This document shows positions 781 to 44,560 of a DNA stretch of 64,000 bases, piece by piece. The notes under the pieces are model-generated. The model ran no database searches. It worked only from the letters and a program-made list of their open reading frames with translations, and was not told where the DNA came from. Within the stretch, counting starts at the first letter, position 1. Each line of letters opens with the position of its first letter. The position numbers and the translations under genes are program-made. This DNA comes from Escherichia coli (lineage in GTDB: Bacteria > Pseudomonadota > Gammaproteobacteria > Enterobacterales > Enterobacteriaceae): NCBI RefSeq assembly GCF_030013595.1, contig NZ_CP122768.1, one strand, 5' to 3'.

Positions 781-871
781 GAGATTATTCCTTATAAAAA
801 GTAAATGAATGGAAGAATGTCCGGAGGCAGGGACGGAAGTGAGTCAGGACTGCGCTTTCAGGGAAAAGGCA

Positions 872-1690
872 TCAGCGCATGCTCTCCAGCAGCGTTTCTG
901 CCATCACCCACAATGCGCGATTGAGCTTAATGTCGGTGTCGATGCTGTGAATGGCCCGGGTGTGGATACGTTTTCCTCTGGCACTGCGACCGGAAATTCC
1001 GCCTTTCAGCATATTCTCCTGGATGGTCTGATATGCGCTCCACAGGTCCTTGCCGTAATCCTCCCTGCGTCGTGGTGTCAGAATGTCAGCAGTGGTGACG
1101 GGCTGATGTTCGTCACCATAACGGTAAGTCAGTGCCGCCTGCGCCAGTGCCTGGCGTGCCGGTGGCGGCAGGACCAGCGACTGCATGGCATCACGTTTCT
1201 CCTCAATCCGGTCAAACACGCCCACCACTTCGTAAGCCCCTTCAATAACTTTCTCCACCACGTTTCCCCGGTGCGGAACACGCACTTCCCCCAGAGACTG
1301 ACCACAGACGCAGCCGTTCTGGCAGACGAATCTGAAGTAACCCGGCAGCATCTGGTAGCTGGAGGTACCGTCATGGGAGTTGAGCAGAATAATTTCAGGG
1401 ACATGTTGTCCGGTTATCTCCCCGTCACGCCGCAGACGCAGCATGTGTTTTGTGTATTCCCGGCGACCCGGGTCACGCACACGTGTCTGGCAGGCGAAGA
1501 ATGGCTGAAAGCCTTCCCGCTGCAGACTTTCCAGTACGGTGATGGTGGGAATGTACGCATAGCGTTCACTGCGGGAGGTATGCCGGTCTTCTCCAAAAAT
1601 ACTGGGAACATAGTGCATCAGCTCTTCATGTGTCAGTGGACGTTCACGGCGTATCTGGTTTGTATAACCAAAACGACTGGCTAATCGCAT
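872..1690 (-). CDS. DUF932 family protein (YfjQ/YafZ-like), CP4-type island core gene
   Basis: 272-aa ORF starting MRLASRFGYTNQIRRERPLTHEELMHYVPSIFGED; length and N-terminus match the recalled YfjQ/YafZ paralogues; gene order DUF932 - antirestriction - RadC. Confidence 0.65.
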   Translation of the reverse strand: MRLASRFGYTNQIRRERPLTHEELMHYVPSIFGEDRHTSRSERYAYIPTITVLESLQREGFQPFFACQTRVRDPGRREYTKHMLRLRRDGEITGQHVPEIILLNSHDGTSSYQMLPGYFRFVCQNGCVCGQSLGEVRVPHRGNVVEKVIEGAYEVVGVFDRIEEKRDAMQSLVLPPPARQALAQAALTYRYGDEHQPVTTADILTPRRREDYGKDLWSAYQTIQENMLKGGISGRSARGKRIHTRAIHSIDTDIKLNRALWVMAETLLESMR

Positions 1691-2100
1691 AATTGCTCCT
1701 TATGAATGATTAAGCGGTATAAATGAAAAAACCGCGTCTCCCGGAGAAGACGCGGCCTGATGGGTGAAATGAATGAGGTTTATTGTCCGGGAAGCCCTTC
1801 ACTGGTGAGCCACGCATTAAGTTGTTTGCCTGCATAGGGTTCAGAATTCCGGCAGCGCCAGCGTCGCTGACCTTCCGCGTTGCGGATAATCCGCCGGAAA
1901 TGCATTCCTGGATAAACACATTGCGGTAAGCTGTTATGACAGCAACTGTCTGTTTGCGTGAGAAAGGATCTTCGGAAAATAAAAGTAATGTACAGCCCGT
2001 CATGTATTTTCAGGTAAAAATAAAGCCCCTGCCATTATGGCAGAGGATTTATTTACATTTGATATTAATAACGCGCAGATAAGATACTATAATTCATACA

Positions 2101-2514
2101 TTAAATTTTGATTTCGTCAAGCCCGACAATCTTATGAATCGTATTGTCGTAAAGTTTAACGCCCGGTTTACCGTTTTTTAGGGTAACGAAACCGGCGGTG
2201 ATGTTGCCTTCACAACTTTGATTGTTGTTGTATTTGATGGTCTGGGCTTTACCGGTATAGAAATTAATTACGCCGTATAAACCATCCCAGCACGCTGTAC
2301 CCCCCATGGCGTGTACCAGACCGTATTGCATGTCTTTGGATGTGCCCAGGTATTCACAACCTCCGTCGATAGTATCAGTACCCTGACACCAGAATTCTGT
2401 ACCGTCAGTAACGTCAGTCAGGTTGGTCGGTAAAGGAACGGCATTGTTTGCTGATACATTAGCAGTAAAGAAACTGATAACTGCAATCATTAAAATAGTG
2501 ATGATATTTTTCAT
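2101..2514 (-). CDS. Hypothetical secreted Cys-containing protein (signal peptide)
   Basis: 137-aa ORF with hydrophobic N-terminus MKNIITILMIAVISFFTANVSA; six Cys in mature part; lies in visibly AT-rich DNA. Confidence 0.45.
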   Translation of the reverse strand: MKNIITILMIAVISFFTANVSANNAVPLPTNLTDVTDGTEFWCQGTDTIDGGCEYLGTSKDMQYGLVHAMGGTACWDGLYGVINFYTGKAQTIKYNNNQSCEGNITAGFVTLKNGKPGVKLYDNTIHKIVGLDEIKI

Positions 2515-2783
2515 GATAAATACTCCATTGTTTCTGATGTTAAATAAAAGTATAAAAACTGTTTCTGCAATACTTATAATCCACTCGAGAGGTCAGGATT
2601 AACCCCCGACTTGTTTATTAAACACATACCTGAAGATATGACCTTCAACATGGTGATATATTTATACTATGTTTCTGACTGTCTCCTGAATCAAATAAAA
2701 TATATCCGTTCCATGATGAACATCATTTACCTGTTAAGAACACTAATAACCTGATTATTTAGCAAACTCTGCGAGAAAGAATA

Positions 2784-3323
2784 TCAGATCGTAAATAACA
2801 CCAGTATCAGCATAACCAGCCAGACCCAGAAATAAGCAGGTTTTTGCCCGAGGATCTTTGCCCGACGCCACAGATAAACCGGGATCAGCCATGCCAGCCA
2901 GCCAAATGCTGTGGTATCAACACCAGATTTACGGAGTTTTCGTTCATCCAGATATCCCAGAGCAATATTCAGAATCAGAGAGATAAACCAGTACTGGCCT
3001 TCGCTGACTGCATCATAAGCCCGTTCAAATGACATACCGTTCAGCCCGGCAGTCCACATCTCAAGTATGTACCCAATCAAAGGGGCAAATGCCAGCGTCC
3101 AGACAACGTCTCCGGGAATGCGGTGACCCGGAAGGGCCGGAGGAACTTCACTTTGTTTCAGTATTTCCGCCAGTGATGTGGCTGAAACTGGCTGCCATTC
3201 CAGCATGCCCTGTTGCCACACCAGTGTTGATGCATTCAGTTCACCACGCCGGATACGTTCGATAATATCTTCCTCTGTTACGTTATCATAACGTACACCA
3301 TTTTTTTCATAATGCCAGTTCAT
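2784..3323 (-). CDS. Membrane protein with N-terminal DUF4339 (GYF-like) domain
   Basis: 179-aa ORF; N-terminus MNWHYEKNGVRYDNVTEEDIIERIRRGELNASTLVWQQGMLEWQPV fits the W-Y-x-NG...TLVW..GM..W pattern of DUF4339; C-terminal half has hydrophobic helices. Confidence 0.5.
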   Translation of the reverse strand: MNWHYEKNGVRYDNVTEEDIIERIRRGELNASTLVWQQGMLEWQPVSATSLAEILKQSEVPPALPGHRIPGDVVWTLAFAPLIGYILEMWTAGLNGMSFERAYDAVSEGQYWFISLILNIALGYLDERKLRKSGVDTTAFGWLAWLIPVYLWRRAKILGQKPAYFWVWLVMLILVLFTI

Positions 3324-3447
3324 CTGATTCTCCTGTTAATCATTCAGTTAATAAAACATGTGACATCCAAAACAAAAATATTTTTATGATATTCATTTTC
3401 ACTCACTGTATTAAATTAAACTGAGGTGTTTTACACCACGTTATCAA

Positions 3448-3905
3448 TTATTCCTGGAACCAGGTGTTCCAGCAGCTACCGTAGAATTTGTTACCCAAAG
3501 TCTTTTTCTCATTTTTGATATTTGCGGTATAGCTGTCGACTTTCTTACCGTTTACTAAAACGTCGAGCTTCGTGGCTTCACCGATAGCATCGATAAAGTA
3601 TACCCACGCATTCTTATTCATTCGTGTTCCGTCGACAGGTGGGGCCGAATACTTTTTACCGTTGATGATAAAAATAATATCAGAATCGTACTGATTTAGC
3701 GGGGTGGGGGTATGACCGTAAATCCACTCATATGTGGTAGCAAATTGTTGTCTTCTGGATTAATCGTGCAGTTAATAGAAACACTACCGACACTGAACAT
3801 ATCGGTGCCAGCAACACTGTTACGCTTCTACAATGCCGATTCTGCTTGTGCTACGGTTGTACTTACAGTTAAAACAACAGCTAAAAGAATGTTTAACAGT
3901 TTCAT
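3448..3905 (-). pseudogene. Disrupted gene for a small secreted protein (signal peptide followed by in-frame stop, remainder in another frame)
   Basis: Minus-strand ATG at 3905 gives MKLLNILLAVVLTVSTTVAQAESAL then TAG; a ~100-codon open stretch in a different frame ends ...GSCWNTWFQE at 3448. Confidence 0.3.
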
Positions 3906-4036
3906 GAGATTTCTCCCCAAAATTAAATAAATTAATCTTAACCATCATCCGGGTAATATATATCTGAAAATATTTTCAATAACACCAGATAAGAAAAACA
4001 CCACCACAGTGGCGGTGGCGTTTCTCCGGTGTGTCT

Positions 4037-5107
4037 TTATTTAATCCGGGCCATCGCGTTTCTCAGTGCCGAATCTGCACCTTCAGTTATCTCCTGGCTT
4101 TTCTGTAATACCGCCTCTGACCGGGTCAGTGCCTGACGCGCCGCCAGTGGTTTCCGGATATGCTCCATCGTCAGCATCGTGTCCTCGTAGCCCTGCTGAC
4201 GCCAGGCGTCGATATGTGCCGACGTGAAACTGAGCAGACCGCCACTGTTGCCACCATCACCTGCATGTTTCAGCCTTTTCCGGGGACGGATTTCAAGGAT
4301 TGTGGTGTCCGGAAAAGCCCGACGATCCCATAAAGAACCGTCACTCAGATGCGTCACAATCACCATATTGCATCCGGCATCCACCAGTGGCGTCACGGGA
4401 GTATTCCCCTGCCTGTTTCGCCATCCGCCCATCCCACCATCACCGTACATTGTTCCCTGAACCTCGCGGGGACGGAACAGCAGAGGCAGCGCGGCTGACG
4501 CCAGTAAAGCTTCTTTCTGCTGCCCGCGGGGCAGACTCTGGATATGCTGAAAAACGGCGTTTTTCGTGGTTCCGGCACCCAGTTCAGCACGAATGCAGTC
4601 AATAATATCCTGCATGCCTCCTTCTGTGGGGTACAGCGACACGTACAGCGGTAGCCCGTCAGCCAGAGCATCTGTATCAAGATAATGATCCATCAGCGCT
4701 GTCAGGGGCTCATCTGACAACAGCGGCTGAATCATCGGATTGTCGAACCCGTTGATTGTCGATATATGGCGAAAAAGCGTCGTAAGCAGTGCGCCCGCAC
4801 GTCCGGGGATCTGGCAGAGGTTCATGGCCTGAACCAGTTTTTTCAGCAATGAAAAGTAAACCGATCTGTTTACCGACAGAACCTGATTATTCCCCAGATG
4901 ATCCCAGAGCGCCTCCAGGCGTAAGGTGGCTTCTGACAGATCGGGAGAGGCCGCGATAATGGCACCATTGAGAGCCCCGATACTGGCTCCTGAGACCATA
5001 CTGATCTGTGCGCCGCACTCTGCCAGTGCCTTAACCACCCCCGCCTGATAAGCGCCCACCGCTCCGCCGCCGGACAGCACCAGCCCCGTTTGCATTTCTG
5101 TACTCAT
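4037..5107 (-). CDS. Patatin-like phospholipase
   Basis: 356-aa ORF; Gly-rich oxyanion motif LSGGGAVGAYQAG, lipase serine motif GASIG (GxSxG), and a DGG aspartate motif (YGDGGMGG) near the C-terminus; ATG at 5107 overlaps stop of upstream gene (ATGA). Confidence 0.8.
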   Translation of the reverse strand: MSTEMQTGLVLSGGGAVGAYQAGVVKALAECGAQISMVSGASIGALNGAIIAASPDLSEATLRLEALWDHLGNNQVLSVNRSVYFSLLKKLVQAMNLCQIPGRAGALLTTLFRHISTINGFDNPMIQPLLSDEPLTALMDHYLDTDALADGLPLYVSLYPTEGGMQDIIDCIRAELGAGTTKNAVFQHIQSLPRGQQKEALLASAALPLLFRPREVQGTMYGDGGMGGWRNRQGNTPVTPLVDAGCNMVIVTHLSDGSLWDRRAFPDTTILEIRPRKRLKHAGDGGNSGGLLSFTSAHIDAWRQQGYEDTMLTMEHIRKPLAARQALTRSEAVLQKSQEITEGADSALRNAMARIK

Positions 5108-6009
5108 GCCTCTCCCTTCTGAAATATTTCATCAACCATACTTTCAGAGAGGCGTTCTGCAGAGCAGAGACGGGGCATACGAACCGGTAAGTGTTCTGCA
5201 GCCTGCGTGGTTGACCAGATCACAGGATGCCGCTCTTCACTGCACCAGTCCCCCAGCCAGTTAACCGCTTCATGCCATTCGTTATCAGCCTGTTCCCGGC
5301 GCTGACCACCAAGCCAGTCCAGTGTGTTCAGACGTACTGTTGCGCTACCGCCACTCTCCCGTGCCATCTGCGTTAATGCTTTATATCTGAGAATATCCAG
5401 TAACTGATTAACCTGGCCTGTTTCACCCTGACGAATCACATCACCAAACGCGCCCCAGCGAAGCTCTTCAAGCGCCACATAACAACGTCCGGCAGGGGAA
5501 AATGACGCGTATCGCCCGGCGCTCCACCACGAGAATATCTGCTCAAGATGTAACTGTGCCCGCTGAACCTGGTCAACACGGTGGAGTTTTTCCTCAAGAT
5601 GATTCAGTTTCTGATGAACCTGTTCTGCCAGAGTGAGTAACTGCTCCCGCGTGTCAGCCGAATAATGCGCCAGCCTGGCAGTATCACTGACCAGTGAACT
5701 GACCCTGTCGTTTACCCGGGTAATCGCGTAGTTTGTGGTGGCAAGTGACGTTGTCAGCTCCGTCAGCCAGCGCAGGGACGCCTCAACGCCCTGTGCAAGC
5801 GACGCATTGATGGCATTCTGCCGTGCAGCGCCTTCGCCGGTCAGCCCCTCTTTTAAACGCCGGAAGAACGTGCGCTCTCCGGCCGTGCGGATATGCTCCT
5901 GTGCAACATCGATTCCGTTTGCGAAATCAACCACAAATTTTTCAGGAAGACAGGTGAGTACCTGACATACCCGGTTATCAGCAATTTGTTGAATAAATGG
6001 TGAAGTCAC
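5104..6009 (-). CDS. Coiled-coil hypothetical protein (YjcZ-like partner of dynamin-like GTPase)
   Basis: 301-aa ORF with GTG start overlapping the dynamin stop (GTGA) and its own stop overlapping the patatin start; no catalytic motif recognised; YjcZ comparison is by size and position only. Confidence 0.55.
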   Translation of the reverse strand: MTSPFIQQIADNRVCQVLTCLPEKFVVDFANGIDVAQEHIRTAGERTFFRRLKEGLTGEGAARQNAINASLAQGVEASLRWLTELTTSLATTNYAITRVNDRVSSLVSDTARLAHYSADTREQLLTLAEQVHQKLNHLEEKLHRVDQVQRAQLHLEQIFSWWSAGRYASFSPAGRCYVALEELRWGAFGDVIRQGETGQVNQLLDILRYKALTQMARESGGSATVRLNTLDWLGGQRREQADNEWHEAVNWLGDWCSEERHPVIWSTTQAAEHLPVRMPRLCSAERLSESMVDEIFQKGEA

Positions 6010-8393
6010 AGCATTGTCTCCAGCTCTTCCCTCAGCGCCTTACTGTCAGTAATGAGCTCAGGAACCCTTTCATTTAATGCCTGAAGTCGCCCGGTAAGCC
6101 GTTCCTGCGCCTGCTGATCGCGTTTATGATCTTCAGAGCTCTGAATCAGCGTGTTACGCAGTTGTTCAACTTTCTCCCTGAATGCGCAGAAAAAGGCATC
6201 GATTTCCTGGCGGACGGGCTGGTTAATATCCTGCTCAATGGATGCCTGCAGCTCCCCGAAATATGCCCGGGTCAGTGACATAACTTCCTCTCTGGCCTTG
6301 TTGATATTGATCACGCTGCGACTCACATCCTCGTCATAGTTTTCCCAGCCCAGGTCACTGGTGCCAAACCATCGACAAACGGTTCCCCATACGCCACTCT
6401 GCCGACGGCGACGGGTGACGGTCTCCGTTCTTTCCTCCATAAGCGCACTCAGATTTATTTTTACCGCGAGCCGGGTCTGTAACTGGCTGACTGCCGGAAA
6501 ACTGATTTTTACGGTAAAGCCCTCATCCTCCAGGCGGGCATTGATGCGACCGGCAATGTTTTCTGTGGCGTACAGGGCCGTGCCACGAAAACCTGTTTCA
6601 ATCCCGCTGACGATTTTCTCCAGCTCAGGCCGGAACTGTGCTTCAGCCTCACGGTGCAGGCTGGTCACGGTCGATTCGATTTGCGTCATCAGTTCAAGGG
6701 CTGCCCTGCGATCACTGAATTTTATTTCGGGGCTGTCCGGATCAAAGTCCCGCATCCTGTCATGCTGATTTCCGGTTCCGAAAATATCGTGAAAGAAAGC
6801 GAATGCGTTTCTCTCCCGGGGCTGCGCTGAATTTTCTTCCTCCAGCATTTGCTGTTCTTTGCGTTTACCGCTTCTGAAATAGTCGTTCAGCTCCTCCTCC
6901 AGTGAGGCACAGACCTTCGTCAGTAATTCCCCGGTTTTGGTATTGATGTCCTCCATGGCCATTCTGACATCACCGGTCACCTGATTCTGACATTCCTCAA
7001 TCTCCTGGATATCCGCCAGCAGGCTGGTAATATGCGCCTGTAGTGACTGAATGCTTTGCTGCAGCCCCTGATGACGTAATGACAGATATTCGCTGACATT
7101 TTCTGCATTCTGCATCAGTTTTGCGGCGGCAGAGTCAACCGCCAGTGCCGCCGCTCTGGAATGGGAGCTCTGTATGACTTCCGTTATCAGTTGATCGATC
7201 AGAGATATATTCCAGAGTTTTTCTGCCTTTTTATTTACCTTAGTGCTGTCTTTCCAGTCGTCCTCTTCCACCATAGGTCCGAAAGCTTCCCTGATAAAAT
7301 CATCGACCCAGGCTTCATCAACCGGAAGCGCACCGTTTTTTCGTAACTCATGAAGCGCACGGTTAGCCAGGTACGCCTGACGTGATGAGCCGGGATAAAC
7401 GCGGGAGGCGGGCAGCACATCGCTGTTCAGCATTGCTGGCACCTTCTGGCGTACGGCATCCGCACCATCACCATTGCGATCTTTTTCATCGAATTTATTG
7501 ACCAGCACAAACAGACGACCGGCTGAGACGTCAGCAATGGCATTAAGCTCTTTACGAACCTCCTCATCGGCTTTCGAGTTCATCTGGGTGTAATCCATCA
7601 CCGCCAGCACCGCAGAGGCTTTCTGTAGTTGATCCCGCATCATCATTTCCATCTGTGGTTGTCCGGCTTCATTAGGGCCGGGGGTATCCAGCAGTGTGAG
7701 TGTTCCCTGACATGCATCCATTCCCACCAGGTGGCTGAACGCCACGTCGATCACCGGTAGTTTCTGCACTTCTGCGTATTCGTCAAAAGGAAATTCAGTC
7801 CCCATTGCCGCAGCAAGACGAACCAGGTCATTTAACGATGCCAGTCCGGTAAAGATTTCGTCTTCCCCGTGGTATTCATTTTTAAGCCAGACATCATCCG
7901 CCAGAATATCCAGTAGTTCGCGGGTATCCCCGGTTTGCTGCAGGGACTGTGCGACTTGCTGCCCTGCCGGGGTGGCGAGTTTTTCCTGCAGTGTGATTAA
8001 TAAATTGCGGACGGGCTGAATATGTTCCAGATGGAGGACCGGTTCCGTTTTTCCGGGAACGTGGCGGATCAATGTCGGTACCGAGGTCATGGGGCGGTTA
8101 CGGTTGGGCAGAATTTCCTGCCCCACAATGGCGTTGATGGTGGTTGATTTGCCCGCCTTCATCGTGCCGACCACAGCCAGCACCATCTCCCTGCGGGCGG
8201 TTTTGATTTGTTCGCCCTCCAGCTCCTCAATTCTTTTCAGCGCTTTCCGTTTATCAAAAAGCAGCCCGTTTTCGTTCTTACTGTCAGATAACACATCCGG
8301 CTCATCAACCATTTGCCGGAGCAGATTGATATTCAGTTGCAAAAGCCGGTCGGCTTCATCACAAAGCAGGGCGATGTTCTTTTCGTGCATCAT
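6006..8393 (-). CDS. Dynamin-like GTPase (CrfC/YjdA-like bacterial dynamin)
   Basis: 795-aa ORF; G1 P-loop VVGTMKAGKSTTINAIVG, G3 LLDTPGPNE, G4 VNKFD; long helical C-terminal region; N-terminal block closely resembles my recollection of E. coli YjdA. Confidence 0.75.
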   Translation of the reverse strand: MMHEKNIALLCDEADRLLQLNINLLRQMVDEPDVLSDSKNENGLLFDKRKALKRIEELEGEQIKTARREMVLAVVGTMKAGKSTTINAIVGQEILPNRNRPMTSVPTLIRHVPGKTEPVLHLEHIQPVRNLLITLQEKLATPAGQQVAQSLQQTGDTRELLDILADDVWLKNEYHGEDEIFTGLASLNDLVRLAAAMGTEFPFDEYAEVQKLPVIDVAFSHLVGMDACQGTLTLLDTPGPNEAGQPQMEMMMRDQLQKASAVLAVMDYTQMNSKADEEVRKELNAIADVSAGRLFVLVNKFDEKDRNGDGADAVRQKVPAMLNSDVLPASRVYPGSSRQAYLANRALHELRKNGALPVDEAWVDDFIREAFGPMVEEDDWKDSTKVNKKAEKLWNISLIDQLITEVIQSSHSRAAALAVDSAAAKLMQNAENVSEYLSLRHQGLQQSIQSLQAHITSLLADIQEIEECQNQVTGDVRMAMEDINTKTGELLTKVCASLEEELNDYFRSGKRKEQQMLEEENSAQPRERNAFAFFHDIFGTGNQHDRMRDFDPDSPEIKFSDRRAALELMTQIESTVTSLHREAEAQFRPELEKIVSGIETGFRGTALYATENIAGRINARLEDEGFTVKISFPAVSQLQTRLAVKINLSALMEERTETVTRRRRQSGVWGTVCRWFGTSDLGWENYDEDVSRSVININKAREEVMSLTRAYFGELQASIEQDINQPVRQEIDAFFCAFREKVEQLRNTLIQSSEDHKRDQQAQERLTGRLQALNERVPELITDSKALREELETML

Positions 8394-36275: not shown

Positions 36276-38366
36276 ATGCGAATAACCACTCTGGCTTCCG
36301 TAGTCATTCCCTGTCTCGGATTTTCAGCCAGCAGCATAGCTGCTGCAGAGGATGTGATGATTGTCTCGGCATCCGGCTATGAGAAAAAGCTGACTAACGC
36401 AGCCGCCAGTGTTTCTGTGATTAGCCAGGAGGAATTGCAGTCCAGCCAGTACCACGATCTGGCGGAGGCTCTGAGATCAGTAGAGGGTGTGGATGTTGAA
36501 AGTGGTACGGGTAAAACCGGAGGGCTGGAAATCAGCATCCGAGGAATGCCAGCCAGTTACACGCTGATACTGATTGATGGTGTTCGTCAGGGCGGAAGCA
36601 GTGACGTGACTCCCAACGGTTTTTCTGCCATGAATACCGGGTTCATGCCCCCTCTGGCCGCCATTGAGCGTATTGAGGTTATCAGGGGGCCGATGTCCAC
36701 ACTGTATGGCTCTGATGCGATGGGCGGTGTGGTGAATATCATTACCAGAAAGAATGCAGACAAATGGCTCTCTTCCGTCAATGCAGGGCTGAATCTGCAG
36801 GAAAGCAACAAATGGGGTAACAGCAGCCAGTTTAATTTCTGGAGCAGTGGTCCCCTTGTGGATGATTCTGTCAGCCTGCAGGTACGCGGTAGCACACAAC
36901 AGCGTCAGGGTTCATCGGTCACATCACTGAGCGATACAGCAGCCACGCGTATTCCTTATCCCACGGAGTCACAGAATTATAATCTTGGTGCACGTCTTGA
37001 CTGGAAGGCGTCGGAGCAGGATGTGCTCTGGTTTGATATGGATACCACCCGGCAGCGTTATGATAACCGGGATGGGCAACTGGGGAGTCTGACGGGGGGA
37101 TATGACCGGACCCTGCGCTATGAGCGAAACAAAATTTCAGCTGGCTATGATCATACTTTCACCTTCGGAACATGGAAATCGTATCTGAACTGGAACGAGA
37201 CAGAAAATAAAGGTCGTGAGCTTGTACGCAGTGTACTGAAGCGCGACAAATGGGGGCTTGCCGGTCAGCCGCGGGAGCTTAAGGAATCGAACCTTATCCT
37301 GAATTCATTACTGCTTACCCCTCTGGGAGAATCTCATCTGGTTACGGTGGGGGGCGAGTTTCAGAGCTCGTCCATGAAAGACGGAGTTGTCCTTGCCAGC
37401 ACAGGTGAAACTTTCCGGCAGAAAAGCTGGTCGGTATTTGCTGAGGATGAGTGGCATCTCACGGATGCACTTGCGCTGACTGCGGGCAGCCGCTATGAAC
37501 ATCATGAGCAATTCGGGGGACACTTCAGTCCGCGTGCATATCTGGTCTGGGATGTGGCAGATGCCTGGACGCTGAAAGGCGGTGTGACCACGGGATATAA
37601 GGCACCCAGAATGGGGCAGCTACATAAAGGGATTAGTGGTGTGTCCGGGCAGGGAAAAACAAATCTACTTGGTAACCCCGACCTGAAGCCGGAAGAGAGC
37701 GTCAGTTATGAGGCTGGGGTGTATTACGATAACCCCGCCGGTCTGAATGCCAATGTCACAGGTTTTATGACTGACTTCTCCAACAAGATTGTCTCTTATT
37801 CCATAAATGATAACACCAATAGCTATGTAAACAGCGGAAAGGCCCGGTTGCACGGTGTGGAATTTGCCGGCACATTGCCGCTGTGGTCAGAGGATGTCAC
37901 GCTGTCACTGAATTACACCTGGACCCGAAGTGAACAACGTGATGGTGATAACAAAGGTGCGCCGCTGAGTTATACCCCTGAACACATGGTGAATGCGAAA
38001 CTGAACTGGCAGATCACCGAAGAGGTGGCATCATGGCTGGGTGCCCGTTATCGCGGGAAAACACCACGTTTCACCCAGAATTATTCGTCACTGAGCGCTG
38101 TACAGAAGAAAGTGTATGATGAGAAAGGAGAATACCTGAAAGCCTGGACGGTGGTGGATGCAGGTCTGTCGTGGAAGATGACGGATGCCCTGACGCTGAA
38201 TGCTGCGGTGAATAACCTGCTCAACAAGGATTACAGTGACGTGAGCCTGTACAGTGCCGGTAAGAGTACGCTGTATGCCGGTGATTACTTCCAGACGGGA
38301 TCATCAACAACAGGATATGTGATACCTGAGCGAAATTACTGGATGTCGCTGAACTATCAGTTCTGA
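36276..38366 (+). CDS. iha: TonB-dependent outer-membrane siderophore receptor / adhesin (IrgA homologue adhesin)
   Basis: 696 aa; signal peptide; plug-domain and 22-strand barrel features; C-terminal ...YWMSLNYQF aromatic end; length and sequence match recalled Iha. Confidence 0.8.
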   Translation: MRITTLASVVIPCLGFSASSIAAAEDVMIVSASGYEKKLTNAAASVSVISQEELQSSQYHDLAEALRSVEGVDVESGTGKTGGLEISIRGMPASYTLILIDGVRQGGSSDVTPNGFSAMNTGFMPPLAAIERIEVIRGPMSTLYGSDAMGGVVNIITRKNADKWLSSVNAGLNLQESNKWGNSSQFNFWSSGPLVDDSVSLQVRGSTQQRQGSSVTSLSDTAATRIPYPTESQNYNLGARLDWKASEQDVLWFDMDTTRQRYDNRDGQLGSLTGGYDRTLRYERNKISAGYDHTFTFGTWKSYLNWNETENKGRELVRSVLKRDKWGLAGQPRELKESNLILNSLLLTPLGESHLVTVGGEFQSSSMKDGVVLASTGETFRQKSWSVFAEDEWHLTDALALTAGSRYEHHEQFGGHFSPRAYLVWDVADAWTLKGGVTTGYKAPRMGQLHKGISGVSGQGKTNLLGNPDLKPEESVSYEAGVYYDNPAGLNANVTGFMTDFSNKIVSYSINDNTNSYVNSGKARLHGVEFAGTLPLWSEDVTLSLNYTWTRSEQRDGDNKGAPLSYTPEHMVNAKLNWQITEEVASWLGARYRGKTPRFTQNYSSLSAVQKKVYDEKGEYLKAWTVVDAGLSWKMTDALTLNAAVNNLLNKDYSDVSLYSAGKSTLYAGDYFQTGSSTTGYVIPERNYWMSLNYQF

Positions 38367-38395
38367 TAATAACAAAACGCTATCACTGACGGTAG

Positions 38396-38440
38396 AATAC
38401 GTTGCCACTGCAACTCCTGGCGGAACAGTGGCAACGTATT
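38396..38440 (+). terminator. 15-bp perfect inverted repeat 30 bp after iha stop (stem-loop, no T-tract)
   Basis: AATACGTTGCCACTG - 15 nt loop - CAGTGGCAACGTATT. Confidence 0.5.
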
Positions 38441-38879
38441 AGGTTAAGTGCATTTCCGATCCGCTAATGAGATTTCGTTACCAACAACTAATATCGTCAC
38501 AGGAAATGCACGGATTATTTTTAACTTATCATTTACATACTTGTCCAGAGTGTAAGCGCACCGTGAAGGACGTGGGGTAAAAATTAGTTTACAGAGAGAG
38601 TGACGTTCCAGGGCAACAACTCTTTCATGCGGTTGGCAGGCCAGGTGTTGATTACACTGATCACGTGGCGTAGCCACGTTTCCGGCTCGATTCCGTTAAG
38701 TTTTGCAGCTACCGATCAGGCTGTACATCACTGCCGCACTATCGCTCGTCATCTCAAAGTCCGGTCTCGTCAGCAGGAAGGTATCATTCTCTCCCGCCAT
38801 TTTTCCAGGGGCCCGGTCAGATAAGTCCCTTTGTCTATCGCTGACTCCTGACTCATAACCCGGTTAGCAGAATGCAGGG

Positions 38880-39266
38880 TCACCACCTCGCCACGACCAA
38901 ATCCAAATAAGTCAATTGCACCTTCTCAATCGCCATTTTGTCAGTAAGCGTACAGCCTGAACTGATGGTATCTTCACCATCAATGACAACGGTGATCGCA
39001 ATTTTACTGACGTTCGCCGGAACACGATCCAGTGCTATCTCAATGCTGGCCTGCTGCGAACCGGTAACGAGCCTGACTGCCCCCTCAGGAGAAGACAAAT
39101 TATTATAAAAGATAAAGTCAGAATCGCCACTGACCTTTCCCTGAGCATTAAGCATGAACAGGCAGGTATCGGGTTCGCCTTTAAAGCCGGATTTGGCAGG
39201 GTACTGAAGATTCAGCCTGATCGTAGATTGCTGAAGGGGTATGTTTTGTCCGGATTGTAAATTCAT
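38880..39266 (-). pseudogene. terF: TerF-like TerD-domain protein, truncated (N-terminal 128 codons only)
   Basis: MNLQSGQNIPLQQSTIRLNLQYP... parallels the TerA N-terminus; ORF is far shorter than a full ter-family protein of this type and is followed by non-coding debris. Confidence 0.5.
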
Positions 39267-39646
39267 ATTAACTCTCCTGATTTTTGATTATTATTAATGC
39301 GCAGCGTTTATATATGTTCCCTAGGCTTAGTTCTGGACGCTGGATATTCGGTGAGGCGTAAATATGGTATGACACCATTTTTCATAACGCTGAAGTTTCT
39401 ATACCTGTTGAATTTGAATTTTCATTGACCGGGTATCTTATTTTCCAGGGCCCGTTCCTTCATAAGTCGCAAAAGTAACATATATCCGAAGGGCATGCTG
39501 TTGATATCAGACACGGAATACTGGCTTTAACCAGCAACCACAGATAAACCCGGGGCCTGCATAAAAGGTTCATGCCAGAATTAACATAGCTCTGCTTTCT
39601 GCCCCCCCCTTTCCCATATTCACCCGTTGATAGCGGATCGATACCC

Positions 39647-39687: not shown

Positions 39688-40263
39688 TTAGACATTGACG
39701 CCGTGCTGGGAAGCAAGCGCTGACAGACCACCGGCAAAACCCTGGCCAACAGCTTTAAACTTCCACTCAGTACCATGGCGATACAGTTCACCGAAGACCA
39801 TTGCGGTTTCGGTTGAGGCGTCTTCAGACAGATCGAAACGGGCAATTTCCGTCCCGTTGTCGTTGTTGTAAACGCGCATGAAGCTGTTGCTCACCATGCC
39901 GAAGTTTTGTTTACGCGCTTCTGCATCATAGATGGTAACGGCAAATACCAGTTTTTTGATGTCTGCTGAGACTTTGGTCAGATCGATTTTGACCTGCTCA
40001 TCGTCGCCGTCGCCTTCACCGGTACGGTTGTCGCCCTGGTGCTCTACTGCGCCATCAGGGCTGGTTTTATTATTGAAGAAAATGAAATGGGCATCTGACA
40101 GTACTTTACCGTCTTCACCTACTGCGAATACGGAAGCGTCCAGATCAAAACCCTGACCATCGGTTACACGGGCATCCCAGCCCAGGCCAACCATAGCGAC
40201 ATTCATGGTTGGTGCTTCTTTGGTCAGAGATACGTTGCCGCCTTTTACGAGAGAAACTGCCAT
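39688..40263 (-). CDS. terE: Tellurium resistance protein TerE (TerD domain)
   Basis: Start at [18 protein letters not shown]; TerD-domain paralogue directly after terD. Confidence 0.8.
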
Positions 40264-40331
40264 TTTTAGCTCCTGCAAACAGTTGAATGAGGCTGAATTA
40301 ACAGCCCCAGATATGAAAAGTTACTTTTCGA

Positions 40332-40910
40332 TCAGGACGCGTTAATGCCGTACTGAGCACATACAGATGCCAGACCACCAGCATAACCCTGGCCTACTGC
40401 GCGGAATTTCCACTCACCATTGTGGCGATACAGCTCGCCGAACAGCATGGCAGTCTCAGTGGACGCATCTTCGGTCAGATCGTAGCGAGCGACTTCAGTC
40501 TGGTTATCGTCATTAACCAGACGAATAAACGCACCGGATACCTGACCAAAGCTCTGGCGACGAGCCTGAGCATCGTGGATGGTCACAACGAAGATGATCT
40601 TGTCAACTTCAGACGGGACGGCGTCCAGTTTAATTTTCAGCGATTCATCATCACCATCGCCCTCACCGGTGCGGTTATCGCCGGTGTGCGTTACGGAACC
40701 GTCGGATGACGTCAGGTTGTTATAGAAGATGAAATCTGAATCGCCGCGCACTTTGCCGTTTGAGGCCAGCAGGAATGCTGAAGCATCCAGGTCAAAGTCC
40801 TGACCGTCTGTTGAACGCGCATCCCAGCCAAGGCCCACCAGGACATTTTTCATTGACGGAGCTGCTTTACTCAGGGAGACGTTCCCGCCTTTGGAAAGAG
40901 AAACACTCAT
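40332..40910 (-). CDS. terD: Tellurium resistance protein TerD
   Basis: 192 aa [32 protein letters not shown]...; canonical TerD. Confidence 0.85.
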
Positions 40911-40958
40911 AAAATAACCTCTTCGATTAGTAATTGTTCAGGTTAACACTTAAGGGGA

Positions 40959-41999
40959 TTAACTCCCCTTTTCCTCAGATTCAGGTTTGCCCGGGAACAT
41001 GACGCTTGCGAGAATGCCCAGCGCCAGTACACCCAGTACAACATACAGGCTGGTTGTTGCCGCGATGCTGTAACCATGATGCCAGATGTGATCGGTCGCA
41101 TTCAGGCCGAGTTTTGCCGCGATGAAGAACAGCAGCACGATAACGGCCTTCTCCAGATGAACCAGGTACTGTTTCAGTGCCTCAAGGACAAAATACAGAG
41201 TACGCAGGCCCAGGATAGCAAACATCATGGCACTATAGACGATAAGCGGTTCACGACTGACGGCAATGATTGCCGGTACCGAGTCAAACGCGAACATTAC
41301 GTCCGAGAGTTCAACCACAGCCACACACAGGAACAGCGGGGTCGCATACAGCGCCGCTTTTTTACCACGGCCAATGGTGACATCGCTGTTTTCTGGTTTC
41401 GCCAGTTCAGCATCCACTTCCTTCTGGTTAAGTAGGAAGGCATGCCCTCTGAGCTTCGGCCAGATAGGGAAGAAGCGTTTAACCATACGGTAAGCCAGAT
41501 GCTGGGAGTAATCCTCAATTTCATCATCGTCATCACCGCTTTTAAGCATCATGACCGCCGTCCAGGCAACGATAATAGCGAAGACAACTTCAACGTACGG
41601 CCCCAGACTCAGCAGGCTCGTACCGATGGCGACAAAGATGCCCCTGAAGACGATGGCACCAATGATCCCCCAGTAGAGAACACGGTGGCGATAACGATCC
41701 GGAACGGCGAACCAGGAGAAGATTGCCATCATGACGAACAGGTTATCGACCGACAGCACTTTCTCCAGCGCATAACCCGTGACAAACAGACTGGCAACCT
41801 CAGCACCGTGGTGGATATAGAGGAAACCGGCAAATGCCATCGCAACCACAACCCAGAATACGGACCAGAGCGCAGCACTCTTCAGCGAGATTGGCTTGTC
41901 ATCACGGTGCATAAACAGGTCAATAAAGATGGCACCGACTGAAAGCGCAATAAAAACAATGACCGTTTCAGTCGGGAAGCCGATGTGTGTGGAAACCAT
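40959..41999 (-). CDS. terC: Tellurium resistance integral membrane protein TerC
   Basis: 346-aa multi-pass membrane protein in terB-terC-terD order. Confidence 0.85.
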   Translation of the reverse strand: MVSTHIGFPTETVIVFIALSVGAIFIDLFMHRDDKPISLKSAALWSVFWVVVAMAFAGFLYIHHGAEVASLFVTGYALEKVLSVDNLFVMMAIFSWFAVPDRYRHRVLYWGIIGAIVFRGIFVAIGTSLLSLGPYVEVVFAIIVAWTAVMMLKSGDDDDEIEDYSQHLAYRMVKRFFPIWPKLRGHAFLLNQKEVDAELAKPENSDVTIGRGKKAALYATPLFLCVAVVELSDVMFAFDSVPAIIAVSREPLIVYSAMMFAILGLRTLYFVLEALKQYLVHLEKAVIVLLFFIAAKLGLNATDHIWHHGYSIAATTSLYVVLGVLALGILASVMFPGKPESEEKGS

Positions 42000-42021
42000 A
42001 TTTTACCCTTAGGGATGTGGA

Positions 42022-42477
42022 TCAGAGGCCAAATTCAGCCGGGTCGAAGCCCAACGCGATAGCGATCTCGCGGGAGGCCAGTTTCTCGTCCTGATCGAAG
42101 TTACCGTCACTTTTCGCAACGGCAATACCAACACGTAAGGCCAGCTGAGCGGCCTCAGGCTGATCTTTCAGCGCCAGGATGTATTTCATGGTTTCGCCCT
42201 TGCCAATTTCAACATCGAAATCGAAGCTTGAAACCAGTTTATTGAAGAACTCAATCACCTCATTGGTATCGAAGACCTTCAGCTCTTCTGAAGAGCGCAG
42301 AAAGCCCATCATTTTCTGCTTTTCTTCCGAACTTACGCCGTCACTCGATACGGCAATACGGGCACATACAGCAACGGTGCCCTGCATGAATTTTTTGTTT
42401 TTGAAACGGCCAACCTGGCGGGTCAGTTCGTCACGGCCTGAGTTAATGGCACCTTTAACTTTGTCGAAAAAGCTCAT
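42022..42477 (-). CDS. terB: Tellurium resistance protein TerB
   Basis: Start at MSFFDKVKGAINSGRDELTRQV (151 aa); track ORF is extended upstream into the terA 3' end. Confidence 0.8.
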   Translation of the reverse strand: MSFFDKVKGAINSGRDELTRQVGRFKNKKFMQGTVAVCARIAVSSDGVSSEEKQKMMGFLRSSEELKVFDTNEVIEFFNKLVSSFDFDVEIGKGETMKYILALKDQPEAAQLALRVGIAVAKSDGNFDQDEKLASREIAIALGFDPAEFGL

Positions 42478-42499
42478 ACCTGTTTCCTTTGTTGCTGTG

Positions 42500-43657
42500 T
42501 TATTTAGAACCGGCGCTCCAGCGAAATCCCCAGCCAAATGCCCGGTCCATTTCGTCCTGGCCTTTGAAGTACTGGTTAATTCGCTCGACTTTAATTGCGC
42601 CGTTTTCGTTTACGAGTCTGGCAATGGCGCACAATGTGCGACGGTTCTCACCTTCGGTCAGGCGGGTCTCAATGGGCGGTTGATCCGGCACATGAATGGT
42701 GACTACACCATCAGTCTTGTCCCAGCTGGGAACACCTTCATAAATAAAGGCGTAAATCAGCACTTCGCGGATATGCTTCCATTCACGTCCATTGATATGC
42801 AGCCACTCGCCGTCTGATACATCACCCGTCCGGTCATCGCCCTTGAGCTGAACATACGGTTCATCGCGATAATCACCGAATGCATTACCGAGCGCCTGAA
42901 TGACCGATTTATACCCGTCCTGAAGCTCAACAAAGGCCCCCAGATCCAGGTCGATTCCTTTGGAGCCGAACATACCTGCAAAGCCTGATTTGCTACTGCC
43001 CCGGTGCCAGTTCAGGTTGATCCGGATTTCACCGAAGTTATCCCGTTTGGTCAGGCTGATTGCAGGCTTCTCTTTTGTCAGCGATACCTTGCTCAGGCTG
43101 ATTTTTGTCTCAACTGGCGGAGGGGTTACAACCGGAGGAGTTGGGGCTGCGGGAGCCGGTTCGTCGGCAATATTTACGCCGAAATGCTCTGCCAGCGGTT
43201 TAAGTCCACCGTTGAACCCCTGCGCAACGAAGCGGAATTTCCAGTCATTATTACGACGGTAAAATTCCCCCAGAATTAAGGCTGCTTCCTGACGGCCGCT
43301 CAGTTCGACACTGCCGCTAACCAGGCCGGTAGCCCCTTGCTCCACGTCGATGGAAAGATTACGAAGACCGGACACCGTCTGCCCACCGTCACAGGTCACG
43401 GTGAACGCAATTTTCTGGACATCAGGTTTCAGCCGGTTGAGCGCGACAGTAAAGGTTGAGTACTGGCCTTCACTGACCAGGCTGACGGTACCATCATCGT
43501 TACGTGGCTGACCATAAAACACCATGTCCGCATCACCCTGCACCTTCCCGTCGGCATACAGGCGAAACGCCGAAGCATCCACCTGGCCGCCCGAGGTGAT
43601 CCGGACCCGCAACTCCTGGGCTGGAACGGGGGCATTGCCCCCCGGCGTCAGGTTCAT
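42500..43657 (-). CDS. terA: Tellurium resistance protein TerA (double TerD-domain protein)
   Basis: 385 aa; start overlaps terZ stop by 1 nt. Confidence 0.8.
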   Translation of the reverse strand: MNLTPGGNAPVPAQELRVRITSGGQVDASAFRLYADGKVQGDADMVFYGQPRNDDGTVSLVSEGQYSTFTVALNRLKPDVQKIAFTVTCDGGQTVSGLRNLSIDVEQGATGLVSGSVELSGRQEAALILGEFYRRNNDWKFRFVAQGFNGGLKPLAEHFGVNIADEPAPAAPTPPVVTPPPVETKISLSKVSLTKEKPAISLTKRDNFGEIRINLNWHRGSSKSGFAGMFGSKGIDLDLGAFVELQDGYKSVIQALGNAFGDYRDEPYVQLKGDDRTGDVSDGEWLHINGREWKHIREVLIYAFIYEGVPSWDKTDGVVTIHVPDQPPIETRLTEGENRRTLCAIARLVNENGAIKVERINQYFKGQDEMDRAFGWGFRWSAGSK

Positions 43658-44238: not shown

Positions 44239-44560
44239 GTTTTATTCCTTAAAATGGTAATGACCGAGACAATCAAAGGTATATTTAGTAACTGACGAAG
44301 AAAATCATATCATGATGAAGTTCTCTGACAAGGGAAATTTTTGTGGTTTTCTGTAAAAACACAAAAAGAAATCCTTTTCAGGGTGTTAGTTTTTCTATTT
44401 TTAATTTAAATATCAATGTGTTATAAGGAATCCAAAAAACACTGACGCACTCCATAACCACAGGAGTTATTAATCATATTATGATTGACATGTAGCTTAG
44501 ACACTCATAGACTCACTTCTCAATCATAAATTTGCATGGCGTTCCGGATAATTAAAAAAA

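Follow-up and report, generated by a model that had tools for sequence, protein, structure and literature searches.

The segment from position 2101 to position 3905 of the 64-kb window (the whole stretch of DNA that was analyzed) is very probably a variable slot for small exported-protein genes in an Enterobacterales island of the CP4-57/CP4-6 type. The slot lies between the GTPase/cargo side and the DUF905-DUF932-antirestriction-RadC-CbeA/CbtA side of the island and holds three separate small genes, here called A, B, and C, each with its own Shine-Dalgarno sequence and bounded by the patatin and gene A terminators. For the whole, we lean slightly toward an explanation in which this exported-protein slot carries an envelope module formed by genes B and A and having a protective role. 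The three genes are real genes, which RefSeq already lists as hypothetical, DUF4339, and YfjT/YkfB family, and the region is an ordinary one with no new system; accessory content of this sort is routine in a very common type of E. coli island.

Gene content and boundaries of the segment

The window matches E. coli UMNK88 (NC_017641.1) with 100% identity, and the segment belongs there to the tellurite/urease/Iha island at tRNA-Ser. Each of the three genes is encoded on the minus strand, and the feature positions given in the earlier note were correct throughout. The features are as follows.

2026 to 2046, minus strand: terminator after gene A, hairpin CCTCTGCCATAATGGCAGGGG then CTTTATTTTT, the 3' end of transcription of the segment
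2101 to 2514, minus strand: gene A, 137 amino acids (WP_000789535), exported protein; open reading frame and RefSeq CDS, intact
2515 to 2783, minus strand: spacer separating genes B and A (32% GC), without a predicted terminator
2784 to 3323, minus strand: gene B, 179 amino acids (WP_001104020), inner-membrane protein; intact
3324 to 3447, minus strand: spacer separating genes C and B (27% GC), with a sigma-70-like promoter match at 3414 to 3386
3448 to 3905, minus strand: gene C, an exported-protein gene of the YfjT/YkfB family, here a pseudogene
3999 to 4017, minus strand: terminator after the patatin gene, CACCGCCACTGTGGTGGTG then TTTTTCTTAT, ending the dynamin-RdcB-patatin operon
4037 to 5107, 5104 to 6009, and 6006 to 8393: patatin, RdcB-family, and dynamin genes of that operon

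The AT richness relative to the flanking genes that had been noticed earlier was borne out, with 41.3% GC in the segment versus 52 to 57% in the flanks (DUF932, 55.7%; patatin, 55.9%) and 48.9% in the whole window. Gene A (42%), gene C (41%), and the intergenic spacers (27 to 37%) are low in GC, and gene B, at 48.5%, is near the window average. The AT dip is real but not extreme, as 10.8% of the 1805-bp intervals across the mosaic 64 kb equal or exceed the segment in AT richness. Together, genes A, B, and C were found in 77 of the 5426 complete E. coli genomes, adjoining the patatin gene in 76 of these 77.

Two intact small genes with signal or membrane features had been described, and both descriptions hold, for gene A by its signal peptide and for gene B by its membrane helices; their Shine-Dalgarno sequences, read from the sequence, are GGAG (2526 to 2523) and AGGAG (3334 to 3330), respectively. 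Likewise, the gene reported to have an in-frame stop after its signal peptide is gene C, which has kept its signal peptide (MKLLNILLAVVLTVSTTVAQA/ES) and is interrupted at codon 26 by a TGG-to-TAG nonsense mutation (3830 to 3828). A second lesion, absent from the earlier note, is the loss of 1 bp between positions 3733 and 3732. No intact coding sequence is thus left in the window copy, for which RefSeq annotates only a C-terminal fragment (3448 to 3621). The intact allele is represented by E. coli E2, with a 152-amino-acid protein named YfjT/YkfB family phage-associated protein in RefSeq. In complete E. coli genomes, the TAG and TGG alleles occur 36 times each, and the TGG allele was an intact 152-amino-acid open reading frame in all three genomes in which it was translated. 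The intact protein is 31% identical to both K-12 YfjT (142 aligned positions; E value, 2.6e-21) and K-12 YkfB (144 positions; E value, 3.6e-21) and shares 34% identity with a Yersinia protein for which a PF27224 match had been precomputed; by these similarities, gene C is a true member of the YfjT/YkfB family that is broken here. Its dN/dS is 0.42 versus the intact allele. Since half of the carriers have lost the gene and a related copy in the island of strain PAR has been split independently, gene C is dispensable.

The three genes are separate from the dynamin operon, because a terminator stands between them and because the patatin/dynamin operon is found in 2589 complete E. coli genomes versus 77 for the trio. 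The alternative that the trio encodes accessory subunits or effectors of the dynamin-RdcB-patatin operon, for instance membrane-targeting partners in a LeoA-like system, is highly improbable. The trio does follow the operon directly, on the same strand, and adjoins the patatin gene in nearly all carriers, and the dynamin protein gives a weak PADLOC LeoBC match (E value, 9e-6); however, the terminator after the patatin gene is a strong intrinsic one, the operon is far more widespread, genes A and B occur without it in GPEC996, Salmonella, Citrobacter, and Yersinia, and in other islands unrelated cassettes follow the patatin gene. As components of a LeoA/LeoBC-like operon, the three genes were therefore set aside, their distribution largely refuting the idea and neither cotranscription nor co-occurrence being found. 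In the neighboring operon, PADLOC gave weak phospholipase and LeoBC matches; it gave none for gene A, B, or C. This independence of the trio matters for studies of the dynamin-RdcB-patatin operon, which is carried by half of the complete E. coli genomes.

A scan for sigma-70 promoters returned 6 matches versus 6.7 expected from shuffled sequence; as the matches are no commoner than in shuffled sequence, promoters are not established. In K-12, ykfB is expressed from a FliA promoter inside yafY (PMC4183435), and no sigma-28-like promoter was found on the coding strand of the segment. A search of the AT-rich spacers for RNA elements in Rfam returned nothing at E values up to 1.

The slot and its counterparts in other islands

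According to the UMNK88 annotation, one side of the island consists of tRNA-Ser, DUF4942, CbtA/YeeU, DUF987, JAB/RadC, antirestriction, and DUF932 genes, and the other side consists of the dynamin operon, Cah, and the GTPase. The island therefore combines insertion at a tRNA with the GTPase, DUF932, antirestriction, RadC/JAB, DUF987, CbeA/CbtA, and DUF4942 genes of the CP4-57/CP4-6 type, the same gene set as in K-12 CP4-57 and CP4-6. The equivalent K-12 slots are yfjS-yfjT in CP4-57 and yafY-ykfB-ykfF in CP4-6. They lie in islands of the same kind, with the GTPase YfjP or YkfA, the DUF932 protein YfjQ or YafZ, and likewise antirestriction, RadC/JAB, DUF987, and CbeA/CbtA genes, and they too hold genes for small lipoproteins or exported proteins followed by DUF905. 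A DUF905 remnant was also seen next to the segment. The order differs, in that the slot lies here between the cargo and DUF932, whereas it follows DUF932 in K-12. In place of a YfjS/YafY lipoprotein, the segment has gene A and a GYF_2 membrane protein (gene B), which K-12 lacks, and its gene C, only 31% identical to YfjT/YkfB, is inactivated.

Outside K-12, the slot contains YfjS, a 150-amino-acid protein, GYF_2, gene A, and DUF905 in Salmonella; GYF_2, a 145-amino-acid protein, a 136-amino-acid protein, and DUF905 in Citrobacter; and GYF_2 and then YfjT in Yersinia. Members of the same families also occupy it in E. coli PAR and BE2-5, and related islands have other cassettes of small genes in the same place. 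In the Salmonella island, genes A and B keep their collinearity with the DUF905/DUF932 block (about 75% nucleotide identity), as they do in an E. coli island without the dynamin operon, while the 5' end of gene C is shared with patatin-side sequence of other islands. Homology to PAR resumes at 2095, just beyond gene A, and homology to GPEC996 ends at 3398. Because A and B go with DUF905/DUF932 and C goes with the patatin side, the segment joins two older blocks.

The description of the segment as recently acquired cargo thus stands in one part and falls in another. The slot is variable and cargo-like, both in its low occurrence among complete genomes and in its differing cassettes, and acquisition as a single unit conflicts with the two blocks. 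As for conservation in related islands, on which the earlier note had made its reading depend, the genes are absent from most of these islands and, where present, are conserved under purifying selection. We consider it distinctly unlikely that the segment is a single recent block of AT-rich cargo whose gene A encodes a toxin-binding or adhesin-like virulence factor. Its GC content below that of the flanks, its presence in only 77 genomes, and the enrichment of ETEC, STEC, and animal isolates among the carriers are consistent with that view, but the blocks are two rather than one, and genes A and B occur in an island without the dynamin operon.

The products of genes A and B

The N terminus of gene A (MKNIITILMIAVISFFTANVSA/NN) looks like a typical signal peptide with an AxA-type signal peptidase I site and without a lipobox. 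The mature part has 4 Cys in about 115 residues, so that the earlier label "Cys-rich" was overstated; all four are conserved throughout the family. The AlphaFold2 model (pLDDT, 83.8) is all-beta, and we describe the gene A product as a four-Cys beta-protein of the periplasm. Its dN/dS values of 0.11 to 0.27 indicate purifying selection.

In searches of Pfam, NCBIfam, and PADLOC, gene A had no match, and a search of the PDB by sequence gave no relative; the suggestion that it is a toxin-binding or adhesin-like factor is left unsupported by any of them. While an exported protein with four conserved Cys would suit the virulence view, gene A is of a periplasmic type, with 115 residues and without anchor or autotransporter features, and its nearest relatives belong to lytic jumbo phages, to which a host cell adhesin would be useless. 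Among known periplasmic proteins, the lysozyme inhibitors (Ivy, MliC/PliC, and PliG) were rejected as relatives, having neither fold nor sequence similarity to it. Membership in the YfjS/YafY family of inner-membrane lipoproteins (PF20494) was rejected as well, with no Pfam match and no lipobox, and the alignment of gene A with YfjS/YafY reached an hhalign probability of 2.8%.

The relatives of gene A lie in phages and islands. Phrog_8968 matches it over its full length (E value, 9.1e-37; residues 1 to 135 against positions 1 to 134 of a 135-position profile), and tblastn found homologues in 53 phage records, with 47 of the 53 covering at least 80% of the protein. The full-length phage homologues, which include SPN3US_0182 (39%) and Asesino gp203, are 38 to 43% identical to it. 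The structure-based homology search proposed in the earlier note, made with Foldseek against viral models, arrived at the same uncharacterized jumbo-phage family and at no known fold. Only 18 representative clusters among 1.84e9 proteins match gene A, and its family is thus rare, and shared by enterobacterial islands and jumbo phages of the SPN3US/Asesino type. What had been an orphan secreted protein is thereby placed in a small family.

The phage genes SPN3US_0180 to -0183 and Asesino gp201 to gp204 encode tandem small proteins with signal peptides in phiKZ-related jumbo phages. SPN3US_0182 and Asesino gp203 resemble gene A (39 to 43% identity) in being full-length and in having a signal peptide and four Cys, and SPN3US_0181 is 49% identical to the 150-amino-acid protein of the Salmonella island, whose family is homologous to the gene A family (hhalign probability, 98%; E value, 5e-14). 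In contrast to the island genes, those of the jumbo phages belong to a lytic genome and lack a GYF_2 membrane partner, and the comparison carries over no mechanism to gene A. For genes B and C, a search for homologues in phages found none; since gene B has none, the phage link is limited to gene A. Within the phage cluster, Asesino gp204 matches YafY with an E value of 2e-6 in a tiny database, the only hint, and an indirect one, of a tie between gene A and YafY.

Gene B is predicted to have an N-terminal cytoplasmic GYF_2/DUF4339 domain followed by three or four transmembrane helices. Pfam GYF_2 (PF14237, which is DUF4339) covers residues 3 to 48 (profile positions 1 to 46 of 50) with a score of 45.8 bits versus a cutoff of 25.8 bits (E value, 5.3e-12) and is the sole match for the genes of the segment in Pfam and NCBIfam; the N terminus has the beta-beta-alpha-beta arrangement of the GYF fold, with the GYF bulge. 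Hydrophobic helices span residues 73 to 95, 111 to 126, 139 to 152, and 164 to 179, all approximately, and a PPxLxG linker directly after the GYF domain and an LDERKL loop are conserved. The AlphaFold2 model has a pLDDT of 86.9, and dN/dS values of 0.08 to 0.31 again point to purifying selection. With the known GYF proteins (eukaryotic CD2BP2/GIGYF and Myxococcus GltJ), gene B has in common its N-terminal 50 residues, matched by Pfam GYF_2; its remainder is, unlike theirs, a small membrane domain of three or four helices. It also differs from GltJ in having neither a zinc ribbon nor a long periplasmic region, and it scores 16 bits against the NCBIfam GltJ model, which has a cutoff of 450 bits. 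For the membrane domain, which is conserved across phyla, we found no Pfam family, solved structure, or structural or sequence relative.

Eighty loci related to gene B were collected from diverse bacteria. Immediately downstream of the gene B homologues, 17 of 29 gene families (59%; 9 with a signal peptide and 8 lipoproteins) are predicted to be exported, versus 100 of 556 control genes in the same loci (18%; Fisher P value, 2.8e-6), with the signal peptide and lipobox calls coming from our own heuristic and crude gene calling rather than from SignalP. The remaining 12 of 29 families are predicted to be nonexported. Immediately upstream, 14 of 71 genes are predicted to be exported, which is the background level. 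The gap between genes B and A is 269 bp, versus 20 to 110 bp in most of the other loci; this gap and the 12 nonexported families count against a module of genes B and A. A neighborhood rule for GYF_2 membrane proteins, by which an exported partner is encoded downstream, is statistically supported and makes DUF4339 a testable two-component hypothesis.

Possible functions of the segment

That these genes are remnants of an old mobile element, in decay and without function, silenced by H-NS and hitchhiking with the island, is unlikely. AT-rich DNA is expected to be silenced by H-NS, and the AT-rich spacers, the neighboring DUF905 remnant, and gene C, inactivated here and in 36 genomes and split in the related PAR copy, would all fit decay. 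Against it, the reading frames of genes A and B are intact in every carrier examined, both keep a good Shine-Dalgarno sequence, and their dN/dS stays between 0.08 and 0.31 even over the distance between E. coli and Salmonella (dS, 0.6 to 1.1); the cross-phylum conservation of the gene B membrane domain and the conservation of gene A in phages argue in the same direction.

In the explanation that we favor, genes B and A would form a two-part envelope module in which the conserved membrane part, gene B, works with a variable exported periplasmic partner. The cytoplasmic GYF domain might bind a proline motif, perhaps the invariant PPxLxG linker of gene B itself. The most likely role of such a module would be protection of the envelope, by excluding superinfecting phages or by neutralizing toxins that act in the periplasm. 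We put this protective role forward tentatively, regarding it as rather doubtful in itself and ranking an adhesin or toxin role as less likely still. It is suggested by the swapping of exported partners between islands as cassettes, by the occurrence of gene A and its paralogue in lytic jumbo phages within a tandem signal peptide cluster, and by the location of the genes on mobile islands in which conflict genes abound.

T4 Imm and Sp, T5 Llp, and Cor, superinfection exclusion or moron envelope proteins of phages or prophages, are alike in kind, being small exported, lipid-anchored, or membrane proteins that are mobile, variable, and dispensable for their element. No sequence or fold similarity to them turned up, and the likeness is one of analogy only. 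In the literature on yfjT/ykfB, on yafY/yfjS/DUF4339, on the SPN3US genes, and on the island gene set, no functional study was found. The one exception concerns YafY, described as an inner-membrane lipoprotein whose overproduction activates Cpx (PMC6538781). Of the neighboring families, it is the sole one with a recorded phenotype, and Cpx activation does not point to defense.

A more specific version of the protective reading makes genes A and C and their paralogues orphan periplasmic immunity proteins in an acquired defense array on a mobile island, directed against effectors that target peptidoglycan or membranes (type VI secretion effectors, colicins, or phage tail lysins). The small size, export, and four conserved Cys of the proteins, the few families in highly variable cassettes swapped between islands, and the NERD, AAA, HNH, PIN, and WYL genes in distant gene B loci are compatible with it, but no cognate toxin gene is nearby, and the presence of gene B as a conserved membrane partner is not explained by it; we give it little credence. 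We are equally reserved about a bolder form of the module, in which gene B and its downstream neighbor would be an undescribed, widespread two-gene envelope module, with the four-Cys beta-proteins common to CP4-type islands and SPN3US/Asesino-type jumbo phages (gene A and the 150-amino-acid family) as its periplasmic specificity subunits. The exported protein or lipoprotein partner would, in this form, be freely exchangeable. If it were true, islands would use four-Cys proteins against phages, and phages would use them against competitors. So conceived, the module spans Enterobacterales, Betaproteobacteria, Lentisphaeria, and Bacteroidota and lies for the most part on mobile or defense-type islands.

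Anatomy and island setting of the segment

The segment at 2101-3905 is a CP4-type island cassette slot holding two envelope-protein genes that are conserved and under selection, plus one dead gene, and it is ordinary accessory island content. ORF calling and reading of the sequence recovered the three ORFs of the earlier note, all on the minus strand and each with a Shine-Dalgarno sequence 6 to 8 nt ahead of its ATG. The genes and the terminators that bracket them are as follows.

Gene A: 2101-2514, minus strand, 137 aa, classic signal peptide MKNIITILMIAVISFFTANVSA/NN
Gene B: 2784-3323, minus strand, 179 aa, GYF_2 domain and three to four hydrophobic helices
Gene C: 3448-3905, minus strand, good signal peptide MKLLNILLAVVLTVSTTVAQA/ES, then TAG at 3830-3828
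Intrinsic terminator: 4017-3999, minus strand, directly after the patatin gene
Intrinsic terminator: 2046-2026, minus strand, directly after gene A

No intrinsic terminator was predicted between C, B, and A, a promoter scan gave no more matches than shuffled sequence, and an Rfam search of 1650-4100 found nothing. The AT-richness described previously was confirmed, the GC content of the segment being 41.3% versus 52 to 57% in flanking genes and 48.9% in the window (spacers, 27 to 37%; gene B, 48.5%). Because 10.8% of equal-sized windows in the mosaic region match or exceed this AT-richness, the dip is genuine yet unremarkable.

Positions 1700-4040 are 100% identical to Escherichia coli UMNK88 (NC_017641.1), a porcine ETEC strain, and the window is the reverse complement of 1210510-1274509 in that record. 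According to the RefSeq annotation, the island is integrated at a tRNA-Ser gene adjoining ghrA. One end carries a CP4-type set (DUF4942, DUF957, DUF5983, CbtA, a YeeU-type antitoxin, DUF987, JAB/RadC, antirestriction, and DUF932), followed by DUF905 remnants, genes A, B, and C, a patatin/RdcB-family/dynamin operon, the Ag43-like autotransporter Cah, and a YeeP-type GTPase. IS elements and the iha, ter, and ure genes occupy a more distant part.

8501-11350: cah, calcium-binding Ag43-like autotransporter
37320-39410: iha
39924-45282: terZABCDE-type tellurite-resistance cluster
About 62394-63011: urease accessory genes

By its cah, iha, ter, and urease content, the island of this porcine ETEC strain resembles the O157 OI-43/48 tellurite-resistance/adherence island. 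The DUF905 (YkfF-like) remnants between DUF932 and gene A (1780-1960, both strands) are annotated by RefSeq as two overlapping pseudo-CDS, labelled "missing N-terminus" and "frameshifted," and are followed by a strong terminator-like hairpin at 1758-1729 (minus strand). The DUF905 gene is frameshifted in strain E2 and intact in PAR, Salmonella, and Citrobacter. The YeeP/YfjP-type GTPase gene (11722-12595, minus strand), frameshifted per RefSeq, marks the far side of the cargo region.

The dynamin operon, the recombination junction, and gene C

The three genes are not part of the neighboring dynamin operon and are separate from it in transcription and evolution. Membership in that operon is contradicted by the distribution of the 1.87-kb segment, found in 77 of 5426 complete E. 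coli genomes versus 2589 for the patatin gene next to it (~92% identity), and by the occurrence of A and B where the operon is missing. Both genes are found together without it at a tRNA-Ile site in E. coli GPEC996 and in a Salmonella island. In Yersinia and Citrobacter the operon is again missing beside gene B, which has YfjT next in line in the former and two gene-A-type proteins in the latter. In the common arrangements, the patatin gene has different small genes behind it: PAR has a YfjT-like gene that is split and proteins of 209 aa (secreted) and 150 aa, and BE2-5 has a 227-aa protein and a 136-aa homologue of gene A (35% identity). The operon itself (4037-8393, minus strand) encodes dynamin (795 aa), RdcB-family (301 aa), and patatin (356 aa) proteins and, at about 92% identity, is carried by 2589 of the 5426 genomes, some of which have several copies. 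PADLOC gave a weak LeoBC match for the dynamin (E = 9e-6) and only weak phospholipase-effector matches for the patatin. The paralogous K-12 pair yjdA-yjcZ (rdcA-rdcB) has a FliA promoter (PMC4183435).

Breakpoints were located by pairwise blastn of the window against GPEC996, Salmonella, PAR, and BE2-5. Homology with GPEC996 spans 853-3398 and goes no further; it takes in DUF932, the DUF905 remnant, both A and B, and the 75 bp ahead of B. Salmonella is collinear over 872-3323 at 75% nucleotide identity. Homology with PAR ends at 2095 and restarts at 3844, within the signal-peptide codons of gene C, and that with BE2-5 ends at 1821 and restarts at 3952. These breakpoints show that A and B go with the DUF905/DUF932 block and C with the patatin side, so that the segment straddles a recombination junction within a cassette-swapping slot. 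The description "recently acquired cargo" in the earlier note is right in part: the slot is variable (77 of 5426 genomes, with other cassettes elsewhere), but the segment is neither one unit nor a recent one. Like slots with related content are present in K-12 CP4-57 (yfjQ-yfjR-ypjK-yfjS-yfjT) and CP4-6 (yafZ-...-yafY-ykfB-ykfF). A further recurrent cassette family of the slot (L008:4231-4878, L011:3621-4187, L004:7298-7942, and L018:3389-4018) comprises secreted proteins of 188 to 215 aa with no Pfam match, and a gene for a YfjR-like (HTH+WYL) regulator often lies ahead of them. The ending ...ELCRRTGNC is shared by the Yersinia, Salmonella, and GPEC996 members; that of PAR, a relative at 25 to 27% identity, has a different C terminus.

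Gene C is a YfjT/YkfB-family pseudogene. Alignment with the intact E. coli E2 allele confirmed the in-frame stop reported behind its signal peptide, a TGG-to-TAG change at codon 26, and revealed a second lesion absent from that report, a 1-bp deletion at 3733/3732. The intact 152-aa allele carries the RefSeq name "YfjT/YkfB family phage-associated protein"; it has 31% identity to K-12 YfjT and YkfB (E, about 3e-21) and 34% identity to a Yersinia protein with a precomputed match to Pfam PF27224 (YfjT). Allele-specific 41-mers placed the TAG and TGG alleles in 36 complete E. coli genomes each, and all three TGG genomes translated contained the intact 152-aa ORF. The dN/dS between dead and live alleles was 0.42. 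At the same position in PAR (L018:4074-4541, directly 3' of the patatin gene) lies a different YfjT-like gene, split into ORFs of 43 and 84 aa, which is a second, independent inactivation. Given this split and the 36 TAG genomes, the family is evidently dispensable and often lost. FliA control has been reported for K-12 ykfB (PMC4183435), and no counterpart FliA promoter was found here.

Gene A and its jumbo-phage relatives

Genes A and B are real, conserved, and selected. Against the E2, GPEC996, CFIA, and Salmonella alleles, dN/dS is 0.11 to 0.27 for A and 0.08 to 0.31 for B, which holds at E. coli-Salmonella dS values of 0.6 to 1.1. Both were correctly described as intact small genes with signal or membrane features, A having a signal peptide and B hydrophobic helices. 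Of the label "Cys-rich secreted" given to A, the secretion signal stands; its cysteines number four, not many, all conserved across the family.

The gene A family is rare, as phmmer, run exhaustively against 1.84 billion representative proteins, returned only 18 clusters at E < 1e-3. Gene A had no match in Pfam, NCBIfam, or PADLOC and no PDB relative by sequence. A relationship to the YfjS/YafY lipoproteins was unsupported (hhalign probability, 2.8%), the sole hint being a weak match between Asesino gp204 and YafY. Its AlphaFold2 (AF2) model is confident (pLDDT 83.8, exceeding 88 across the mature protein) and all-beta. This predicted fold offers no functional lead and counts against the known lysozyme-inhibitor, adhesin, and toxin folds; the previously suggested adhesin or toxin-binding role is unsupported.

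Gene A matches the phrog_8968 family along its whole length (E = 9e-37). Full-length homologues with 38 to 43% identity were recovered by tblastn from 53 phage records, which their organism names assign to phages of Erwinia (27), Salmonella (22), Escherichia (2), Proteus (1), and Enterobacteria (1). Every match listed is to a jumbo phage of SPN3US, Asesino, or phiEaH2 type, of roughly 200 to 250 kb. There, the homologue is one of four clustered small genes whose products all start with a signal- or lipoprotein-like sequence (SPN3US_0180-0183). SPN3US_0181 has 49% identity to the 150-aa protein preceding gene B in the Salmonella island, and the family of that protein is homologous to the gene A family (hhalign probability, 98%; E = 5e-14), so that two paralogous four-Cys proteins are common to islands and jumbo phages. 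A protein family so distributed is modestly new. The four genes are consecutive in these phiKZ-related phages (SPN3US, L006:3099-4808; Asesino gp201-gp204, L007:3093-4825); three encode paralogous four-Cys proteins, two of them with counterparts in enterobacterial CP4-type islands.

Gene B, its predicted exported neighbors, and a possible role

Residues 3 to 48 of gene B match Pfam GYF_2 (DUF4339) with 45.8 bits against a 25.8-bit cutoff, and no structural, PDB-sequence, or Pfam relative was found for its membrane domain. Yersinia, Salmonella, Citrobacter, and other genera have close homologues in their CP4-type islands. Of the distant homologues, one in Saezia adjoins an integrase, and metagenomic ones lie amid HTH, HNH, AAA, NERD, PIN, and WYL genes.

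Since the gene after B consistently looked exported, we scanned one genome per species with an alignment of the membrane domain, which yielded 80 loci from many phyla. With our own ORF calling and a simple, crude signal-peptide/lipobox heuristic, a same-strand downstream gene lay within 400 bp at 57 loci. These genes form 29 families, 17 of which were predicted to be exported (9 with signal peptides and 8 lipoproteins), compared with 100 of 556 other genes of the loci (odds ratio, 6.5; P = 2.8e-6). Lipoproteins alone gave 8/29 versus 20/556 (P = 2e-5), while genes immediately upstream of B were at background (14/71). The largest downstream family is the gene-A superfamily (17 loci, many enterobacterial genera), and a YfjT-family gene follows B in Yersinia, Mixta, one Pseudomonas strain, and one Pasteurellaceae strain. 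The B-A gap here, 269 bp, is wider than usual. From this strong downstream/upstream asymmetry, we propose that B may work with a variable periplasmic partner; the synteny of a GYF_2 membrane protein with an exported partner is likewise modestly new.

B and its exported partner would then form a module, for which the most plausible role, offered tentatively as a possibility rather than an expectation, may be envelope-level protection, by exclusion of superinfecting phages or neutralization of periplasm-acting toxins. This reading draws on partners that are swapped like cassettes, are shared with lytic jumbo phages, and ride on conflict-rich mobile DNA. We keep it tentative because the only phenotype on record among the neighboring families is that of YafY, whose overproduction activates Cpx (PMC6538781), and because the FliA promoter of K-12 ykfB lacks an equivalent here.

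In the gene B alignment, the GYF domain is also followed at once by an invariant PPxL(x)G motif, here VPPALPGHR (residues 58 to 70, window about 3114-3152), and the second helix by a conserved LDERKL loop. Eukaryotic GYF domains bind proline-rich motifs, and a contact between GYF domain and linker is thus conceivable, in which PPxL(x)G might serve as a self-ligand in cis or between subunits. VPPALPGHR resembles the PPPGHR-type ligands that CD2BP2-class GYF domains bind in eukaryotes.
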